Assembly (NCBI RefSeq): GCF_030013595.1 | Contig: NZ_CP122768.1 | Strand: one strand, 5' to 3' | Source of the DNA: Escherichia coli | GTDB lineage: Bacteria > Pseudomonadota > Gammaproteobacteria > Enterobacterales > Enterobacteriaceae | Length of the DNA: 64,000 nucleotides | Part shown: positions 480 to 49,693 of the stretch, in pieces | Layout of the letters: each line of letters begins with the position of its first letter | Numbering within the stretch: position 1 is the stretch's first letter | The notes under the pieces: model-generated | Told to the model about the DNA's origin: nothing | Seen by the model: the letters and a program-made list of their open reading frames with translations, nothing else | The model's database searches: none | Program-made: the position numbers and the translations under genes

Positions 480-1859
480 ATGGAACAGATAACAAAACCG
501 CATTGTGGTGCACGGCTGGATCGCTTACCGGATTGCCGCTGGCATTCGTCAATGTTTGCTATCGTCGCGTTTGGCTTGCTTGTCTGCTGGAGTAATGCCG
601 TTGGTGGCTTGATCCTCGCGCAGCTGAAAGAGTTGGGCTGGACAGATAATTCCACCACTGCCACATTCTCAGCAATCACGACCGCCGGAATGTTTCTCGG
701 TGCGCTGGTTGGCGGCATCATCGGTGACAAAACCGGTCGCAGAAATGCGTTCATCCTCTATGAGGCCATTCATATTGCCTCGATGGTGGTCGGTGCTTTT
801 TCACCGAATATGGATTTCCTTATTGCCTGCCGTTTTGTGATGGGCGTTGGGCTGGGAGCTTTACTGGTGACGCTGTTTGCTGGTTTCACCGAATATATGC
901 CCGGTAGAAATCGCGGAACGTGGTCCAGTCGGGTTTCTTTTATTGGCAACTGGTCATATCCGCTCTGTTCATTGATTGCGATGGGACTCACGCCGCTGAT
1001 TAGTGCAGAGTGGAACTGGCGAGTACAACTGCTTATCCCTGCAATATTGTCGCTTATCGCTACGGCGCTGGCCTGGCGCTACTTTCCTGAATCCCCGCGC
1101 TGGCTGGAATCGCGCGGACGGTATCAGGAAGCCGAGAAAGTCATGCGGAGTATAGAAGAAGGCGTCATACGCCAGACGGGAAAACCTTTGCCGCCCGTGG
1201 TTATTGCTGATGACGGTAAAGCGCCACAAGCGGTGCCGTATTCAGCCTTACTGACAGGAGTATTACTGAAACGCGTGATATTAGGTTCTTGTGTGCTGAT
1301 TGCCATGAACGTTGTGCAGTACACACTAATTAACTGGTTGCCAACGATATTCATGACCCAGGGGATTAATTTAAAAGACTCGATTGTTTTAAATACCATG
1401 AGTATGTTTGGCGCGCCATTTGGTATTTTTATTGCCATGCTGGTGATGGATAAAATTCCGCGTAAAACAATGGGTGTGGGGCTATTAATCCTGATTGCGG
1501 TGCTCGGATATATCTATTCACTGCAAACCAGTATGTTGCTCATAACGCTGATTGGTTTCTTCCTGATTACTTTCGTCTATATGTACGTTTGCTATGCCTC
1601 GGCAGTGTATGTCCCTGAGATCTGGCCGACAGAAGCCAAATTACGTGGCTCCGGTCTGGCGAATGCAGTAGGGCGAATCAGTGGTATTGCCGCACCTTAT
1701 GCCGTTGCAGTGCTGCTCAGTAGTTATGGCGTAACGGGAGTCTTTATTCTTCTGGGGGCGGTTTCAATTATTGTCGCAATTGCTATCGCCACCATTGGAA
1801 TTGAAACCAAAGGTGTCTCCGTTGAAAGTTTAAGTATTGATGCAGTAGTCAATAAATAA
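480..1859 (+). CDS. ydjK: MFS transporter (sugar porter-like)
   Basis: 459-aa ORF, multi-TM hydrophobic profile, MFS motifs (GxxxDKxGRR); synteny. Confidence 0.85.
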   Translation: MEQITKPHCGARLDRLPDCRWHSSMFAIVAFGLLVCWSNAVGGLILAQLKELGWTDNSTTATFSAITTAGMFLGALVGGIIGDKTGRRNAFILYEAIHIASMVVGAFSPNMDFLIACRFVMGVGLGALLVTLFAGFTEYMPGRNRGTWSSRVSFIGNWSYPLCSLIAMGLTPLISAEWNWRVQLLIPAILSLIATALAWRYFPESPRWLESRGRYQEAEKVMRSIEEGVIRQTGKPLPPVVIADDGKAPQAVPYSALLTGVLLKRVILGSCVLIAMNVVQYTLINWLPTIFMTQGINLKDSIVLNTMSMFGAPFGIFIAMLVMDKIPRKTMGVGLLILIAVLGYIYSLQTSMLLITLIGFFLITFVYMYVCYASAVYVPEIWPTEAKLRGSGLANAVGRISGIAAPYAVAVLLSSYGVTGVFILLGAVSIIVAIAIATIGIETKGVSVESLSIDAVVNK

Positions 1860-1875
1860 TACTGGTGGATTCAAA

Positions 1876-2919
1876 ATGAAAAATTCAAAAGCAATATTGC
1901 AGGTGCCGGGCACAATGAAAATTATTTCAGCAGAAATACCTGTGCCTAAAGAAGATGAAGTTTTGATTAAAGTGGAATATGTCGGTATTTGTGGTTCAGA
2001 TGTACATGGTTTCGAATCAGGCCCGTTTATTCCGCCTAAAGACCCAAATCAAGAAATTGGCCTGGGTCATGAATGCGCCGGGACGGTTGTGGCTGTGGGA
2101 AGCCGTGTGCGCAAATTTAAAGCGGGGGATCGGGTAAATATCGAACCTGGCGTTCCTTGCGGTCACTGTCGTTACTGTCTGGAAGGCAAATATAACATCT
2201 GCCCGGACGTTGATTTTATGGCGACACAACCTAACTACCGCGGCGCATTAACGCACTATCTGTGTCATCCGGAGAGCTTTACTTACAAACTGCCCGACAA
2301 TATGGACACGATGGAAGGGGCGCTGGTGGAGCCTGCCGCAGTCGGGATGCATGCAGCGATGCTGGCAGATGTTAAACCGGGTAAGAAGATAATTATTCTG
2401 GGAGCGGGTTGTATTGGTTTGATGACGTTGCAAGCGTGCAAATGCCTGGGAGCTACGGATATTGCCGTCATTGATGTACTGGAAAAACGTCTGACAATGG
2501 CGGAACAGCTCGGCGCGACAGTGGTTATTAACGGCGCAAAAGAAGACACTATTGCACGCTGTCAGCAATTTACCGAAGAAATGGGCGCAGATATTGTTTT
2601 CGAAACAGCGGGTTCTGCGGTCACCGTTAAACAGGCACCTTATCTGGTAATGCGCGGCGGTAAAATTATGATTGTTGGTACTGTACCGGGCGATTCGGCA
2701 ATCAATTTCCTCAAAATCAATCGCGAAGTCACTATCCAGACAGTATTCCGCTATGCCAATCGTTATCCGGTCACGATTGAAGCTATTTCCACAGGGCGAT
2801 TCGATGTGAAATCGATGGTGACACATATTTACGATTATCAGGATGTACAACAGGCATTTGAAGAGTCGGTTAACAACAAACGCGACATTATTAAAGGCGT
2901 TATTAAAATTAGCGATTAA
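1876..2919 (+). CDS. ydjJ: Zn-dependent sugar-alcohol dehydrogenase (MDR family)
   Basis: 347-aa ORF with GHECAG zinc motif and GxGxxG NAD fold; synteny. Confidence 0.85.
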   Translation: MKNSKAILQVPGTMKIISAEIPVPKEDEVLIKVEYVGICGSDVHGFESGPFIPPKDPNQEIGLGHECAGTVVAVGSRVRKFKAGDRVNIEPGVPCGHCRYCLEGKYNICPDVDFMATQPNYRGALTHYLCHPESFTYKLPDNMDTMEGALVEPAAVGMHAAMLADVKPGKKIIILGAGCIGLMTLQACKCLGATDIAVIDVLEKRLTMAEQLGATVVINGAKEDTIARCQQFTEEMGADIVFETAGSAVTVKQAPYLVMRGGKIMIVGTVPGDSAINFLKINREVTIQTVFRYANRYPVTIEAISTGRFDVKSMVTHIYDYQDVQQAFEESVNNKRDIIKGVIKISD

Positions 2920-43160: not shown

Positions 43161-45422
43161 TTACGCCGGGATTTTGTCAATCTTAGGAATGCGTGACCAC
43201 ACGCGGTGTGCTGCCATCAGCGTTAACAGTTCATCCATAAAACTACCATCGGCGCTGTCAGCTTCCACAATCCCTTCTTCACCCTGGTCAGCGATCTTGA
43301 TTGTTGCTTTAAACTTGCGCGCGTCTCCTGCCAGCGCAATCGGTTTAAGGTGTTTGTAGGCTTCCATCAGGTAGTAGTTGGCATCGCCGTTGTCAGCGAT
43401 ATCCGCGATATTGCCGCAAGGGACAATAACCGCATCGACCGTCAGCGAAGGCGCTCCGGCAAAGGTAGCGGCTATAGGCAGCACCGTACCGTCATCCGCA
43501 GTCACTTCACCCATTCGGGAGTAGAGCAGTTTGGCATGAACGCCTTTGGCCTTCAGCGCCTTGAGAATGGTCAGAAGGTCTGCCGATCTCACTTCATCAT
43601 TAAGCAAAATCGCTACCACGCGACCTTTTACATCACCGTCAGGAATGGCGTACAGACTTAAGGATGGATCCTTTTTCAGACAGTTGACGTCCGGAGGCGG
43701 GGTGATATTCAGCTGGTCGTCCGTCAGCTCGATACCGAGATTTTTCGCCACCGCCTGGGCCAGAGTGAGATCAATATGCGCCAGCTGGTCAACAACGCGC
43801 TCACGAATATACGGACGAACTACTTTGCTTAACTCAAAACTGAAACCATCGACAATATGGCGCTGCTCGAATGGCGTCTGACTTAGCCAGAACAGACGCG
43901 GATGGGAATAATATTCGCCAAACGATGGGCTGCGCTCGCGAACTTTATTGCCTTCCACGCGCTCCTGGTATGATTCAAAACCGCCGCGTTTCGGCCCCGG
44001 CGGTGTTTCGCGCGGCCAGTTATCGTTGATCGAGTTCGGTTCATAATTCGCCGGGTTAGTGTCGATCCCCATACGATGCATGCCGTCACGCTGGAAATTA
44101 TGGTAAGGGCAGGTCGGGCGGTTAATCGGAATCTCATGGAAATTCGGCCCACCAAGACGACTGATTTGTGTATCGGTATAGGAGAACAAACGTCCCTGCA
44201 ACAGGGGATCGTTGGTGAAGTCCAGACCAGGAACAATATGACCTGGATGGAATGCTGCTTGTTCGTTTTCGGCAAAGAAGTTATCCGGATTGCGATTGAG
44301 CACCATTTTGCCGACACGCTGAACGGGCACCAGTTCTTCCGGGATAAGTTTAGTTGGATCAAGAAGGTCGAAGTCGAACTTAAATTCATCTTCCTCAGGA
44401 ATCAACTGGAAGCCCAGTTCGTATTCCGGAAAATCGCCTGCTTCAATCGCTTCCCACAACTCGCGGCGGTGGAAGTCCGGGTCACGTCCGGTTAGTTTTT
44501 GTGCTTCATCCCAAACGAGTGAGGCTTTACCTGCCAGTGGTTTCCAGTGGAAACGTACGAACGTTGCCTTCCCTTCGGCATTAATCAGGCGGAAGGTGTG
44601 AATACCGAAGCCTTCCATGGTGCGGTAACTGCGCGGGATCCCGCGATCCGACATCGCCCACATCACGTTGTGCAGAGTTTCAGGTTGCAGAGAAACATAA
44701 TCCCAGAAAGTATCGTGGGCGCTTTGCCCTTGTGGAATTGCCCAGTGTGGTTCTGGTTTTACCGCATGAACAAAATCAGGGAATTTATGCGCATCCTGGA
44801 TAAAGAAGATTGGCGTGTTATTGCCAACAAGGTCAAAAATACCCTCTTCGGTATAGAACTTGGTGGCAAAGCCACGGATATCACGCACGGTATCGGCAGA
44901 GCCAGCACCACCCTGAACGGTAGAGAACCTAACAAATACTGGGGTGATTTTGTTCGGATCTGAGAGGAAATCCGCTTTGGTGATATCGCTTAAGCTTTTA
45001 TATGGCTGGAAATAACCGTGAGCGGCTGATCCGCGTGCATGAACAATACGTTCCGGGATGCGCTCATGGTCAAAGTGAGTGATTTTCTCGCGCAGAATAA
45101 AATCTTCCAGCAGCGTTGGACCACGGTTACCGGCACGCAGTGAGTTTTGATCGTCGGCGATGCGTACGCCCTGATTAGTGGTCAGCGCATAATTTTCACT
45201 GCCTTTGCGTACGTCTTCCAGAGAATTAAGTTTTTCGTTACGCGTATCAGGGGCTTTCAGGCTACCTGGGGCGGTAGGTTGTGCACCTGGCGGTGTTGGT
45301 TCAGTCGCTGGACGATGAGATCCGTCCTCAGGTGCCAGTGAGTCCATCCCCGGTTTCGCTTCGCTGGAATCGTGTAGTGGTGACTGGTGCTGATGTGGGT
45401 TCTTTTCGTTATGTTGCGACAT
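43161..45422 (-). CDS. katE: catalase HPII
   Basis: 753-aa [32 protein letters not shown]; large-subunit monofunctional catalase. Confidence 0.95.
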
Positions 45423-45625
45423 TGAACTCGTCTCCTTAATTTATTACTGAAAGGGCCGCTGTTTTGGTCAAAAAACCCTCTAACTATAGACCATCAGCCA
45501 GATCCCGCTTCGGAGACTATTCTGGAAACGGTGTTATGAAATACACGCAAAGCGGGACGTATGGGGGCTAGATCGGCTAAACTACAGTTTTTCTGATTTT
45601 TAATATGCGTTTAGTGAAGCCAGTA

Positions 45626-45868
45626 ATGAAGAAACCGCTCCGCCAGCAAAACCGCCAGATTATTAGCTATGTCCCACGCACGGAACCCGCGCCGCCAGAA
45701 CATGCGATAAAGATGGATTCGTTTCGTGATGTCTGGATGCTACGTGGCAAATATGTTGCGTTTGTACTGATGGGAGAGTCATTTCTGCGCTCACCGGCGT
45801 TTACTGTGCCTGAATCCGCCCAGCGTTGGGCAAATCAGATCCGCCAGGAAGGGGAAGTGACTGAGTAA
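45626..45868 (+). CDS. cedA: cell division modulator CedA
   Basis: Start MKKPLRQQNRQIISYV at 45626 gives 80 aa. Confidence 0.85.
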   Translation: MKKPLRQQNRQIISYVPRTEPAPPEHAIKMDSFRDVWMLRGKYVAFVLMGESFLRSPAFTVPESAQRWANQIRQEGEVTE

Positions 45869-46028
45869 GGATTACGTACCTCCCGGTTCTGCCGGGAGTT
45901 ACATGGCCTGAAATTCTGTATTTCATTGCTACATTCATTCAAACCACCTGTAACAAAAAGCTGCCTTTGACGATCTATTGCTATAAATAAGTGAACTTTT
46001 TTCTTTAATTGTTTATTTATTTTAAAAT

Positions 46029-46037
46029 GGTTAAGTT
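46029..46037. repeat. 9-bp target-site duplication (left copy) GGTTAAGTT flanking IS10
   Basis: Identical 9-mer immediately outside both IS10 termini. Confidence 0.85.
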
Positions 46038-46083
46038 CTGATGAATCCCCTAATGATTTTGGTAAAAATCATTAAGTTAAGGT

Positions 46084-46152
46084 GGATACACATCTTGTCA
46101 TATGATCAAATGGTTTCGCGAAAAATCAATAATCAGACAACAAGATGTGCGA
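46084..46152 (-). ncRNA. IS10 RNA-OUT antisense RNA (approximate, placed from known IS10 architecture)
   Basis: Known IS10 organisation: pOUT antisense transcript covering the tnp start region; coordinates inferred, not measured. Confidence 0.4.
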
Positions 46153-47353
46153 ACTCGATATTTTACACGACTCTCTTTACCAATTCTGCCCCGAATTACA
46201 CTTAAAACGACTCAACAGCTTAACGTTGGCTTGCCACGCATTACTTGACTGTAAAACTCTCACTCTTACCGAACTTGGCCGTAACCTGCCAACCAAAGCG
46301 AGAACAAAACATAACATCAAACGAATCGACCGATTGTTAGGTAATCGTCACCTCCACAAAGAGCGACTCGCTGTATACCGTTGGCATGCTAGCTTTATCT
46401 GTTCGGGCAATACGATGCCCATTGTACTTGTTGACTGGTCTGATATTCGTGAGCAAAAACGACTTATGGTATTGCGAGCTTCAGTCGCACTACACGGTCG
46501 TTCTGTTACTCTTTATGAGAAAGCGTTCCCGCTTTCAGAGCAATGTTCAAAGAAAGCTCATGACCAATTTCTAGCCGACCTTGCGAGCATTCTACCGAGT
46601 AACACCACACCGCTCATTGTCAGTGATGCTGGCTTTAAAGTGCCATGGTATAAATCCGTTGAGAAGCTGGGTTGGTACTGGTTAAGTCGAGTAAGAGGAA
46701 AAGTACAATATGCAGACCTAGGAGCGGAAAACTGGAAACCTATCAGCAACTTACATGATATGTCATCTAGTCACTCAAAGACTTTAGGCTATAAGAGGCT
46801 GACTAAAAGCAATCCAATCTCATGCCAAATTCTATTGTATAAATCTCGCTCTAAAGGCCGAAAAAATCAGCGCTCGACACGGACTCATTGTCACCACCCG
46901 TCACCTAAAATCTACTCAGCGTCGGCAAAGGAGCCATGGGTTCTAGCAACTAACTTACCTGTTGAAATTCGAACACCCAAACAACTTGTTAATATCTATT
47001 CGAAGCGAATGCAGATTGAAGAAACCTTCCGAGACTTGAAAAGTCCTGCCTACGGACTAGGCCTACGCCATAGCCGAACGAGCAGCTCAGAGCGTTTTGA
47101 TATCATGCTGCTAATCGCCCTGATGCTTCAACTAACATGTTGGCTTGCGGGCGTTCATGCTCAGAAACAAGGTTGGGACAAGCACTTCCAGGCTAACACA
47201 GTCAGAAATCGAAACGTACTCTCAACAGTTCGCTTAGGCATGGAAGTTTTGCGGCATTCTGGCTACACAATAACAAGGGAAGACTTACTCGTGGCTGCAA
47301 CCCTACTAGCTCAAAATTTATTCACACATGGTTACGCTTTGGGGAAATTATGA
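46145..47353 (+). CDS. IS10 transposase
   Basis: Intact 402-aa ORF MCELDILHDSLYQFCPELHLKRLNSLTLACHALLDCKTLTLTELGRNLPTKARTKHNIKRIDRLLGN..., recognised as the IS10/Tn10 transposase. Confidence 0.9.
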   Translation: MCELDILHDSLYQFCPELHLKRLNSLTLACHALLDCKTLTLTELGRNLPTKARTKHNIKRIDRLLGNRHLHKERLAVYRWHASFICSGNTMPIVLVDWSDIREQKRLMVLRASVALHGRSVTLYEKAFPLSEQCSKKAHDQFLADLASILPSNTTPLIVSDAGFKVPWYKSVEKLGWYWLSRVRGKVQYADLGAENWKPISNLHDMSSSHSKTLGYKRLTKSNPISCQILLYKSRSKGRKNQRSTRTHCHHPSPKIYSASAKEPWVLATNLPVEIRTPKQLVNIYSKRMQIEETFRDLKSPAYGLGLRHSRTSSSERFDIMLLIALMLQLTCWLAGVHAQKQGWDKHFQANTVRNRNVLSTVRLGMEVLRHSGYTITREDLLVAATLLAQNLFTHGYALGKL

Positions 47354-47366
47354 GGGGATCTCTCAG

Positions 47367-47375
47367 GGTTAAGTT
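47367..47375. repeat. 9-bp target-site duplication (right copy) GGTTAAGTT
   Basis: Exact direct repeat of 46029-46037. Confidence 0.85.
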
Positions 47376-47494
47376 TTGCTAATCATGATGAGCTATTTTT
47401 GATAGTACATCCTGTGGCGTCGCTCTTAAACTTATATTGTAAATGACTTAGATTTAAATGAGATAATAATTTTGTTAACAATATGAGGCGGGAG

Positions 47495-48298
47495 ATGCTT
47501 TCTACAAACTTAATACAGAGTAATTATGGTGATTTAAATATTAAAAGCCTGGCTTTCGACTCTTTTAAAGAAAGGCTGCAGTCTACTATGACAGCACTCA
47601 CTTTCTTTATATCAACGGGTCAATGTGACTGCGATGAAATAGCAGAATCAAACTTTAATTATATGATTGCCTATATGTCTAACATTAACTATGATGCCTC
47701 AAAGCTAGGAGCGCCAGCACTTAGTTTTGATACATATCTGCAGGACAATGTTAAATATAGAGTAATAATTAATAATCTTTATGGTAGTGAAATTAGGATA
47801 AGAGGTATTAATGAGAATTTTGTTGGGATGGATTTTACCTGTGAATTCCGACCAGAAAAAATGACCAATTTGATCAATATAAAAAACAGGTTGGTTATTC
47901 ACTATTTAAGAACGATATACTATGAACAAAATTATATACATCCTGTTGGGAGCATTTTTGCTGCGATTCAAAAAAATGAGAGTCTCCTAAAGTTTCCTTC
48001 GGTAATATCAATGCTTAATGTCAATCTTCTTTTTAATCCACTGAATCTTCCGGGAATGGGAAGTGGTGTGCTTGAAGAGATTATGAGTATTTCAGATAGT
48101 TCACTTAGAAAACGTCTTGGGTATGAGGTTTTAAGCTTCTCGCTACAAGCACATTCATTGAGTCAGGAATGTATCGATAAGTTAGCCATTTTTTTCGCTG
48201 ACGATCTGTTTAAATATGAGTCAGTATGCATCGCCGCGATGGAACATTTAAAAAGTAAGGCAACGGCCCCTATACAAAACGGACCGTTGCCAGCATAA
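47495..48298 (+). CDS. ydjO: uncharacterised protein, AT-rich ORFan
   Basis: ORF 47483-48298; Met at 47495 gives 267 aa; no recognisable domain; low GC. Confidence 0.7.
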   Translation: MLSTNLIQSNYGDLNIKSLAFDSFKERLQSTMTALTFFISTGQCDCDEIAESNFNYMIAYMSNINYDASKLGAPALSFDTYLQDNVKYRVIINNLYGSEIRIRGINENFVGMDFTCEFRPEKMTNLINIKNRLVIHYLRTIYYEQNYIHPVGSIFAAIQKNESLLKFPSVISMLNVNLLFNPLNLPGMGSGVLEEIMSISDSSLRKRLGYEVLSFSLQAHSLSQECIDKLAIFFADDLFKYESVCIAAMEHLKSKATAPIQNGPLPA

Positions 48299-48301
48299 GA
48301 A

Positions 48302-49693
48302 TTAACGGTGTGCCAGTTCGGCGTCGTCTTCGCTATCCAGAATGGCTTTATCGGTTTGCTTCAGCCACTGGCTGGTCAGCGTGCCAGCGGTCATCGAGCC
48401 ACTAACGTTTAGCGCCGTACGCCCCATGTCGATAAGCGGTTCAACGGAGATTAACAGCGCCACCAGGGTAACTGGCAGGCCCATCGCAGGCAGCACAATC
48501 AGTGCGGCGAAAGTTGCACCACCACCGACACCGGCAACGCCTGCGGAACTAACGGTAACAATACCGACCAGCGTCGCAATCCACATCGGGTCCATCGGGT
48601 TAATGCCAACCGTAGGCGCAACCATCACCGCCAGCATCGCCGGATACAAACCGGCACAGCCGTTCTGACCAATGGTTGCACCGAAAGAGGCGGCGAAACT
48701 GGCGATGGATTCAGGAACACCCAGACGACGCGTTTGTGCTTCCACATTCAGTGGGATAGACGCAGCACTGGAACGGCTGGTAAAGGCAAACGTCAGTACT
48801 GGCCATACCTTACGGAAGTACTTCAGTGGGCTCACGCCATTAATACCCAGCAGAAGGCCATGCACTGCAAACATAATCAGCAGACCGAGGTAGGACGCGA
48901 CAACGAAACTTCCCAGTTTGATGATGTCTTGCAGGTTAGAACCTGCAACCACTTTGGTCATTAGTGCCAGAACGCCGTAAGGGGTCAACTGCATGACCAA
49001 GCGAACCAGTTTCATCACCCAGCTTTGCAGGGTATCGATAGCGGTTAAGACGCGTTCACCTTTCGGCGCATCATCCTTCAGCAGTTTCAGCGCAGCTACA
49101 CCGAGGAATGCGGCAAAAATTACCACGCTGATAATTGACGTCGGATTGGCTCCGGTCAGATCGGCAAACGGGTTTTTCGGGATAAAGGACAAGACCAGCT
49201 GCGGAACGCTCAGGTCAGAGACTTTACCAACATAGTTACTTTCGATGGCGTTCAGACGTGCAGTTTCTGCACCTCCCTGAACCAGACCTTCAGCCGTCAA
49301 ACCAAACAGGTTGGTGACCAGCACACCGACCAGCGCCGCAATCAGCGTGGTAAACAAAAGCGTACCGATGGTCAGAAAACTGATTTTGCCTAACTGAGAT
49401 GCGTTATGCAGACGGGCAACCGCGCTCAGAATAGAGGCGAAGACTAACGGCATAACGATCATTTGCAGCAGTTGAACATAGCCGTTACCAACGATGTTAA
49501 ACCACTGTACAGAATCTTTAAGTACCTGGCTGTCAGAACCATAAATGGTATGCAGGGCAAGGCCAAAAACCACACCCATCACCAGACCCACCAGCACTTT
49601 TTTCGCCAGACTCCACTGTTTATGGCGGGTCTGAGCCAGCGCAAACAGCAGTACAACGAACACCACTATGTTCGCAATTAATGGAAAGTTCAT
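48302..49693 (-). CDS. tcyP: L-cystine transporter, dicarboxylate/amino acid:cation symporter family
   Basis: 463-aa polytopic [20 protein letters not shown]; known as ydjN/tcyP. Confidence 0.9.

Follow-up and report, generated by a model that had tools for sequence, protein, structure and literature searches.

ydjO beside a recent IS10 insertion in Escherichia coli: an Escherichia-restricted gene on an AT-rich cassette between cedA and tcyP

Introduction

An AT-rich open reading frame that begins just downstream of an IS10 copy raises two linked questions, namely what the gene is and whether the transposon has changed its expression. Such an arrangement is found in a stretch of 64,000 nucleotides of E. 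coli DNA (contig NZ_CP122768.1), referred to here as the window. The initial annotation described the gene, ydjO, as a motif-less ORFan in an AT-rich segment of the kind seen in horizontally acquired, H-NS-silenced DNA, and proposed that IS10 could relieve this silencing or supply transcription.

In effect, ydjO is an already catalogued, Escherichia-only gene with an uncharacterised function, and the locus is mostly ordinary. The best overall explanation, considered probable if far from certain, is that of a dispensable, Escherichia-restricted gene carried on an AT-rich cassette and kept near-silent, next to a recent IS10 insertion of small effect. The evidence for each part of this explanation, together with the alternatives, is discussed below.

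Identity and neighbourhood of ydjO

The gene corresponds to E. coli ydjO (b1730), and RefSeq annotates the same 804-nt gene in related genomes. Its product is equal in length to K-12 YdjO, with which it shares 94.8% amino acid identity over 267 residues (14 residues differ), while identity at the DNA level is about 96.5%. As expected of an orthologue, it lies between cedA and tcyP and is convergent with tcyP. The K-12 gene, whose product is listed as 'protein YdjO' and is uncharacterised, has the cedA/tcyP position, the promoter and the length in common with the gene of the window. The difference is the IS10 element, whose end is located 128 bp from the ydjO ATG, close to the initial estimate of about 120 bp.

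The list of open reading frames contains a longer frame from the ATG at 47483 (47483-48298, plus strand, 271 aa), and the annotated start is the ATG at 47495. The region first assigned to the gene is delimited by the first base after the target duplication (47376) and the last base of the stop codon (48298). The presence of a 267-aa open reading frame in AT-rich DNA after IS10 was confirmed by direct count, which gives a GC content of 0.351 for ydjO, compared to 0.496 for the window and 0.44 for IS10. Across positions 47250-48150, GC content remains at 0.32-0.36, with flanks of about 0.50; ydjO DNA (0.35 vs 0.50) has the AT-richness typical of a xenogeneic island.

The features of the locus are listed in Table 1. 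Beyond tcyP, ydjM and then hxpB follow. ydjO stands alone among core genes, and its surroundings contain neither an integrase nor a partner gene nor defence genes. The AT-rich cassette on which it resides is ~1.1 kb long, begins within the last cedA codons and ends 3 bp before the tcyP stop. Its left edge is marked by the cedA hairpin, CTCCCGGT-TCT-GCCGGGAG, which is specific to ydjO-carrying haplotypes. The left part of the spacer is now parted from ydjO by IS10.

Table 1. Positions of genes, IS10 components and regulatory features at the cedA-tcyP locus of the window
Feature	Positions	Strand	Remarks
katE	43161-45422	-	window gene order
cedA	45605-45868	+	last codons QEGEVTE*, derived variant linked to ydjO-carrying haplotypes
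cedA terminator hairpin, CTCCCGGT-TCT-GCCGGGAG	45880-45898	+	dG -20.7 kcal/mol, z -3.6
cedA/ydjO spacer, left AT-rich part	45899-46037	.	E. coli-specific; 'promoter island' in K-12; no counterpart in the E. albertii cassette
Target duplication GGTTAAGTT, left copy	46029-46037	.	9 bp
IS10	46038-47366	+	1329 bp; outside end 46038, inside end 47366; imperfect terminal inverted repeats
RNA-OUT (pOUT transcript)	46083-46152	-	Rfam RF00240, 98.8 bits, E 1e-20, gathering score 41
IS10 transposase	46145-47353	+	402 aa, intact, co-directional with ydjO
Weak inside-end outward promoters pIII, OUTIIp (IS10 nt 1000-1230)	47037-47267	+	placed by literature; no match in consensus scan
Target duplication GGTTAAGTT, right copy	47367-47375	.	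9 bp
19-bp block ATGAGCTATTTTTGATAGT	47388-47406	.	identical in E. coli, P0005-type allele and E. albertii; candidate cis-regulatory site
ydjO sigma-70 promoter ATGACT-16-AATAAT	47443-47470	+	intact; literature promoter located in the window
ydjO Shine-Dalgarno GAGG	47485-47488	+	6 nt before ATG; kept as GAGG/AAGG across spacer alignment
ydjO CDS	47495-48298	+	267 aa, 804 nt; stop codon ends at 48298
A7 run in ydjO	47970-47976	+	frameshift hot spot; extra A in strain M15
H-NS high-affinity motif TCGATAAATT	48168-48183	.	two overlapping 9/10 matches; window-wide count not significant
T7 run in ydjO	48188-48194	+	frameshift hot spot; T6 in O157:H7 86-24 and W409
tcyP intrinsic terminator hairpin, then U-rich tract	48259-48291	-	within last ydjO codons; dG -22.4, z -3.6
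tcyP (ydjN)	48302-49693	-	convergent with ydjO; stop codons 3 bp apart

Origin and distribution of the cassette

The distribution of the gene was examined in 5,426 complete E. coli genomes with an empty-site query, in which the cedA end was joined to the tcyP end. This junction was matched as one place, representing an empty site, in 1,128 genomes (about 21%), and ydjO DNA at a coverage of at least 80% was found in 4,239. For most genomes among the matches listed, the query gave a single alignment with ~46 bp separating cedA and tcyP, and this short spacer contains one bidirectional terminator common to both genes. About 50 further enterobacterial species, including those of Citrobacter, Salmonella, Enterobacter, Kluyvera and Atlantibacter, likewise have an empty site, as do E. 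whittamii and additional lineages of Escherichia; outside Escherichia, the exact empty site is present in each of the enterobacterial genera sampled. The cassette is present in some genomes and absent from others, and relatives that are without it have the empty site intact. The empty site in E. coli and in other species therefore identifies the ~1.1-kb AT-rich segment as an insertion, and the description of ydjO as an ORFan in acquired-looking DNA is supported, the latter by composition and by these empty sites.

The C-terminus of CedA provides a further marker of this event. Cassette carriers, both E. coli and E. albertii, end in QEGEV[T/A]E, as opposed to QENEVEE at the Escherichia empty sites that were read. 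That the E. albertii cassette, too, comes with the derived form of the cedA end (QEGEVAE*) speaks for one common origin. In the proposed scenario, a single insertion event would have placed the cassette between cedA and tcyP, two convergent core genes, and delivered its own cedA terminator, the promoter region and ydjO, and the last ydjO codons would double as the tcyP terminator.

Relatives of YdjO

Matches to YdjO among 5.8 billion protein clusters were restricted to Escherichia and Shigella, even when a two-clade profile was used. With this profile, 125 E. albertii sequences were retrieved as one cluster (P0067). In the E. albertii type strain, an AT-rich open reading frame after cedA was found via a cedA scan across GTDB species, and a full-length E. 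albertii ydjO-like frame of 257 aa (L143:2938-3711) was obtained from a metagenome scan. The E. albertii protein is encoded, as in E. coli, on an AT-rich cassette at the cedA/tcyP locus in a stop-to-stop arrangement with tcyP, and it shares the motifs FISTG, FNYMIA, EKM and NxLVI with E. coli YdjO. The 19-bp upstream block is also common to both species, whereas the cedA terminator hairpin differs and the upstream spacer is about 165 bp long in E. albertii vs 290 bp in E. coli.

The divergence of the gene is strong relative to its surroundings. Between E. coli and the E. albertii type, identity is 34% for YdjO, compared to 93% for CedA and 98% for TcyP. The corresponding dN values are 0.675 for ydjO, 0.030 for cedA and 0.012 for tcyP, which means that dN of ydjO is 20-50x that of its neighbours. 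As judged by sequence comparison, the E. albertii proteins at the same locus appear to be the only relatives of YdjO.

Other searches gave no further relatives. A YdjO scan of GTDB species representatives returned no match, and peptide patterns missed the E. albertii type strain. The phmmer search against 1.84 billion representatives yielded E. coli fragments and the sequence P0035 only; it missed the E. albertii clade, and its negatives are not airtight. No YdjO relatives were found in viral contigs, phage genomes or true plasmids, and three apparent 'plasmid' matches were actually 4.8-4.9 Mb chromosomes. P0035 (26% identity, E 3e-33) was rejected as a distant homologue; the contig on which it lies reproduces the E. 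coli ydjO/tcyP region with A and G exchanged for each other, differing from the E. coli locus by 489 A-to-G and 355 G-to-A changes. Similarly, YahL and YjfZ, 'conserved signature proteins' of similar length, were discarded as paralogues, as BLASTP gave no alignment or only alignments with E>2.

Coding constraint and decay of alleles

At the composition of this segment, ~7% of random codons are stops, and by our own arithmetic the chance of a 267-codon open frame is ~3e-9. Moreover, comparison of seven alleles, one of them very divergent, gave dN/dS values of 0.14-0.27 in the ydjO frame. In four other frames the values were 0.71-2.28, and the antisense frame whose third codon positions coincide with those of ydjO gave 0.23-0.44. 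In the allele alignment, 81 of the 160 variable columns are third codon positions. Such frame-specific purifying selection means that ydjO encodes a protein. ydjO, although an ORFan, is thus a genuine protein-coding gene under protein-level constraint.

At the same time, ydjO is dispensable and often lost or broken. Of 61 full-length alleles from metagenomes, 35 are intact, 10 carry Q261*, which costs YdjO just 7 residues, 7 carry R119*, and the rest are frameshifted. The ydjO pseudogenes of O157:H7 86-24 and W409 have lost one T from the T7 run, and that of strain M15 has gained an A in the A7 run as well as a stop codon. In the YdjO protein clusters, 8,291 full-length member sequences stand against several thousand truncated ones. 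Overall, about a quarter of ydjO alleles are broken. Three metagenome alleles (L121-L123) that seemed to be divergent lineages ('86%' and '79%' identical) proved to be double-frameshift pseudogenes.

Allele decay of this extent, the absence of the gene from 21% of genomes, repeated IS hits (PMC3486847) and searches that gave no homologues or confident fold would be expected if ydjO were non-functional everywhere, a decaying remnant whose frame is still open through too little time. This reading is exceedingly improbable. The frame-specific dN/dS holds over dS of up to 0.88, and E. albertii, despite 66% amino acid divergence, has kept the upstream block and the Shine-Dalgarno sequence as well as an open frame; the number of full-length cluster members speaks against it as well. 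A dispensable gene that is nevertheless constrained at the protein level accounts better for these observations.

A rare E. coli allele, referred to as P0005-type, is a mosaic in which codons 1-165 differ from the window allele with dS 0.88, compared to dS 0.03 in the C-terminal third and 0.03-0.08 in the genomic flanks. In its divergent N-terminal part, dN/dS is about 0.2, with no sign of diversifying selection. This pattern reflects either old allelic lineages exchanged by recombination or an unusually fast evolution of ydjO.

Predicted protein and possible function

Profile libraries did not assign YdjO to any family. E. coli YdjO had no match at E<=10 in Pfam, NCBIfam, PADLOC or PHROGs, the E. 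albertii sequences matched only E2_bind in Pfam (E 0.061, noise), and searches of the PDB by sequence and by profile yielded nothing beyond a designed helical repeat (E 0.02-0.08, noise). The initial description of a protein without a recognisable motif agrees with these results, and neither remote-homology nor structure searches provided a homology-based function.

AlphaFold2 models, built from the few sequences available, were of low confidence, with a mean pLDDT of 44.1 for a 6-allele alignment and 43.2 after E. albertii sequences had been added. The first model contains a C-terminal helical bundle (residues ~190-257, pLDDT 63-83), and the second an N-terminal helix with a beta-sheet (residues ~20-110, pLDDT 44-63). 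YdjO is predicted to be a soluble protein of mixed alpha/beta type, within no recognisable family. A functional study of YdjO was not found in the literature. SNPs in ydjO have been related to H2 production in long-term evolution lines, a link that is correlative only (PMC10997342). Because the gene evolves fast, is retained patchily and is reported to be bound by H-NS, the best guess is that YdjO is an accessory protein of use under certain conditions and has no housekeeping role.

A more specific proposal is that ydjO is an H-NS-silent conflict gene, acting in phage or plasmid exclusion or as a toxin-like effector, with recognition by the N-terminal two-thirds and an effector or oligomerisation role of the C-terminal helical bundle. 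The elevated dN relative to the neighbours, deep allelic lineages including the mosaic P0005-type allele, patchy presence with frequent loss, restriction to one genus and the reported H-NS binding at the locus (PMC3661553) are all consistent with such a role. This proposal is nonetheless quite unlikely, as PADLOC and PHROGs gave no match, the gene stands alone among core genes without an integrase, partner or defence neighbours, dN/dS is low even in the divergent N-terminal part, and no fold evidence points to it. The broader description of YdjO as an accessory protein is retained here.

The IS10 insertion

The element upstream of ydjO is identified as IS10, of the IS4 family, by its length, inverted repeats, 9-bp duplication, transposase and RNA-OUT at the outside end. 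It agrees at 100% identity with the IS10R copy in strain BM28 and is the sole copy in the window. When IS10 and one duplication copy are subtracted, the window sequence matches that of pig isolate HCP5S3_I2, where GGTTAAGTT is present in one copy, at 1523/1523 positions, and none of the 5,426 complete genomes carries IS10 at the present site. The insertion is therefore recent and probably neutral.

The locus has been hit repeatedly by insertion sequences. Other IS10 copies break ydjO in BM28 and O177:H21, and one lies at the cedA stop codon in strain 2017.06.05CC. In O104:H4 outbreak strains, ydjO is interrupted by an IS element (PMC3486847; see also PMC10044804 for IS interruption of ydjO). 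All four IS10 copies seen in the locus are co-directional with ydjO, which could be a hint of selection or the result of target asymmetry only. Taken as a whole, the pattern of insertions is suggestive of a zone where IS elements are tolerated and not of selected activation. The present copy, strain-specific and very recent, would have landed in such a tolerated spot.

Regulatory elements upstream of ydjO

In K-12, the ydjO/cedA spacer counts among 78 'promoter islands' and is listed as an H-NS target linked to predicted foreign genes (PMC3661553, Table 1); as a class, these islands bind RNA polymerase but give little transcription (PMC3661553). The island 1811053_320 ydjO/cedA described by Panyukov and Ozoline 2013 (PMC3661553) is the counterpart of positions 45899-47494 minus IS10, and differs from the window in that here IS10 splits the island. 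The sigma-70 promoter of K-12 ydjO, ATGACT-16-AATAAT, is listed with an HNS mark (PMC3946193), and a binding peak of the RpoS holoenzyme lies within K-12 ydjO (PMC5493296). In the window, the -35 hexamer of this promoter starts 77 bp right of the IS10 end.

With respect to H-NS, the initial annotation is supported for K-12, where ChIP data summarised in the literature mark the protein at the locus (PMC3661553, column H = K; PMC3946193, HNS mark); for the present strain, silencing is a matter of analogy. The count of H-NS motifs in the window, 9 vs 6 expected, is not above chance. The K-12 literature and the geometry of the locus together suggest that ydjO is near-silent in the present strain, as reported for the K-12 cassette.

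The 19-bp block ATGAGCTATTTTTGATAGT begins 13 bp after the target duplication and is invariant in 77 E. coli-type sequences. When the spacers are aligned, this block and the Shine-Dalgarno region are shared by all lineages, and E. albertii is seen to be without the initial ~170 bp present in E. coli, the part which IS10 has cut off. It follows from this alignment that every conserved cis-element stays attached to ydjO.

Effect of IS10 on ydjO expression

The location of RNA-OUT on the minus strand places the outside end, with pIN and pOUT, on the cedA side of the element, so that pOUT reads toward cedA and katE. It is not oriented into ydjO, which lies on the plus strand at the opposite (inside) end of IS10. 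The idea that the element supplies transcription to ydjO through its well-known promoter is not supported as stated. In activation by pOUT, as described for otsBA in rpoS mutants (PMC2744996), the same element is inserted close to a promoter and pOUT reads into the activated gene, while in the window it reads away from ydjO. Because the strong promoter points the other way, an effect of IS10 is less likely than was initially implied.

Weaker outward promoters, pIII and OUTIIp, have been reported within IS10 nt 1000-1230, reading out of the inside end (PMC11481808, PMC4574204). No promoter directed at ydjO, whether hybrid or carried by IS10, was detected in a relaxed consensus scan, and no terminator-like site was found on the plus strand between 47267 and 47495. 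Some read-through from the inside end into ydjO is possible.

The H-NS-silenced bgl operon is activated by insertion of IS1 or IS5 upstream of its promoter. The bgl case resembles the present one in that an insertion sequence lies about 80-130 bp upstream of a promoter in an AT-rich, H-NS-silenced locus. It differs in the IS family and in that, in the window, a large AT-rich H-NS target stays downstream of the element. Relief of ydjO silencing by IS10 is doubtful; to the right of the element, 930 bp of AT-rich DNA are still contiguous with the conserved block and the promoter native to ydjO.

It may still be proposed that IS10 activates ydjO and was selected for doing so, with transcripts from pIII, OUTIIp or pIN crossing the 128-bp spacer and with silencing lifted both by transcription through H-NS-coated DNA and by separation from the upstream AT tract. 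The transposase gene and ydjO are co-directional, outward promoters are reported at both ends of IS10 (PMC4574204, PMC11481808), no terminator-like site intervenes, all four IS10 copies share one orientation, and the insertion, ~110 bp upstream of the start site expected at about 47477, would have a geometry like that of IS1 and IS5 at bgl. Activation of this kind is rather unlikely, however, as the strong pOUT faces the other way and the 3' part of IS10 contains no consensus promoter. Moreover, the insertion is unique to the present strain when compared with the 5,426 genomes, two of the three other IS10 events at the locus disrupt ydjO, as expected for a neutral sink, and the conserved cis-elements and AT-rich DNA are intact, E. 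albertii being naturally without the part that was cut off.

The favoured explanation is that of an insertion with little consequence. IS10 leaves the promoter, the 19-bp block and the Shine-Dalgarno sequence of ydjO untouched, and at most weak read-through from pIII, OUTIIp or pIN would reach the gene. The net effect of IS10 on ydjO, the size of which we infer, is most likely small, and the insertion is probably neutral.

A highly unlikely, speculative extension would combine the conflict-gene proposal with activation by IS10. YdjO may found an undescribed, Escherichia-restricted conflict family, active in phage or plasmid exclusion or toxin-like, whose ancient alleles recombine at the cedA/tcyP slot, whose expression is gated by H-NS and the 19-bp element, and whose representative in the present strain is switched on by IS10 read-through.

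Conclusions

A further IS10 insertion beside a y-gene that is already known, in a region whose H-NS binding is known too, matters little as such. The importance of the findings lies in what they indicate about the gene and its use. The 34%-identical counterpart in E. albertii means that ydjO is not strictly confined to E. coli and Shigella, which bears on its proposed use as a diagnostic 'signature' (PMC11057252), and the absence of the gene from about 21% of complete E. coli genomes is a further limit on such use. For the regulation of ydjO, the 19-bp block ATGAGCTATTTTTGATAGT offers a concrete handle toward its regulator. Additionally, the present strain and the IS10-free HCP5S3_I2 form a natural isogenic pair for the question of whether the inside end of IS10 wakes an H-NS-silenced gene.

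Possible regulatory reach of the IS10 element

The IS10 copy lying between cedA and ydjO may exert its larger regulatory consequence on cedA or katE rather than on ydjO. Transcription from its strong promoter pOUT, which gives rise to RNA-OUT, would run through cedA in the antisense direction first and then, about 615 bp further, enter katE, an RpoS-dependent gene, in the sense direction. No terminator-like site was found on the minus strand from pOUT down to position 45500 and, since the promoter reads out toward these two genes, the main effect of the insertion is perhaps to be sought there.

Each of the four IS10 copies observed in the cedA–ydjO segment points in the same direction as ydjO. 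In BM28, a K-12 laboratory derivative, and in an O177:H21 human isolate not related to it, the element interrupts ydjO after the identical 525 nt (codon 175) and in the same orientation, with the target duplication TGCTTAATA as read in BM28. Codon 175 thus looks like a hot spot at which IS10 has inserted recurrently.

Positions of the features discussed
Feature	Sequence	Position	Strand	Direction
RNA-OUT of IS10 pOUT	window	46083-46152	minus	out of outside end
Predicted pOUT path through cedA to katE	window	45423-46152	minus	
19-bp block	window	47388-47406		
ydjO/tcyP stop codons	window	48296-48304		
IS10 in ydjO, BM28	L001	2620-3948		
IS10 in ydjO, O177:H21	L145	~1419-2747		
YdjO counterpart, E. 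albertii	L143	2938-3711		
YdjO counterpart, E. albertii	L019	3440-3822		
Mosaic ydjO allele (P0005)	L011	4001-4804		
Retained ydjO codons, MOD1-EC7003	L017	3357-3452		
Sequence in place of ydjO, HH45	L010	~860-1025		

Boundaries of ydjO

Within the 19-bp block upstream of ydjO that is shared with E. albertii lie a partial palindrome (CTAT-N5-ATAG) and a mini-ORF of four codons, ATG AGC TAT TTT TGA. At the other end of the gene, the stop codons of ydjO and tcyP lie only 3 bp apart and ydjO lacks a terminator of its own, so that its transcripts would enter tcyP in the antisense direction. Both ydjN (tcyP) and ydjO were among the genes responding in a serum transcriptome (PMC4145685), a joint response that overlapping convergent transcription may cause.

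Mosaic and reduced alleles

The P0005 allele is a mosaic in a genome whose flanks are ordinary E. coli. Its divergence from the window allele is very high in the promoter-proximal spacer and in codons 1-165 (dS 0.88, 67% amino-acid identity), and its last third is nearly identical to that allele. In Escherichia sp. MOD1-EC7003, ydjO is mostly deleted; the 32 codons retained at its end include the tcyP terminator hairpin, and their retention is therefore consistent with selection on that terminator. Strain ES4 lacks katE, cedA and all of ydjO except its last 67 bp, while IS1 copies with gene fragments adjoin tcyP, which points to an IS1-mediated deletion. In strain HH45, cedA and tcyP are separated not by ydjO but by an odd stretch of about 165 bp that is poly-T, poly-C and GC-rich; it may stem from faulty assembly or from a replacement of another kind.

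Database records and species distribution

The 26% identical homologue P0035 is spurious: its source, the public Logan contig SRR33321306, is the E. coli ydjO/tcyP region in which A and G have systematically changed places, and a false homologue thereby enters protein databases. Three PLSDB 'plasmids' carrying ydjO (NZ_CP134663.1, NZ_CP141089.1 and NZ_OL790696.1) are evidently misfiled chromosomes, each of 4.8-4.9 Mb.

The E. albertii YdjO cluster P0067 (125 members) was absent from the results of an exhaustive phmmer search against 50%-identity representatives but was recovered by a later profile search; negatives from this representative library are therefore incomplete. The E. albertii counterpart is intact, with 257 aa and 34% identity, and occupies the same cedA/tcyP slot, so ydjO is not strictly confined to E. 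coli and Shigella. This goes against the specificity claimed for the use of ydjO as a 'conserved signature protein' (PMC11057252); moreover, among complete E. coli genomes, about 21% are without the gene.
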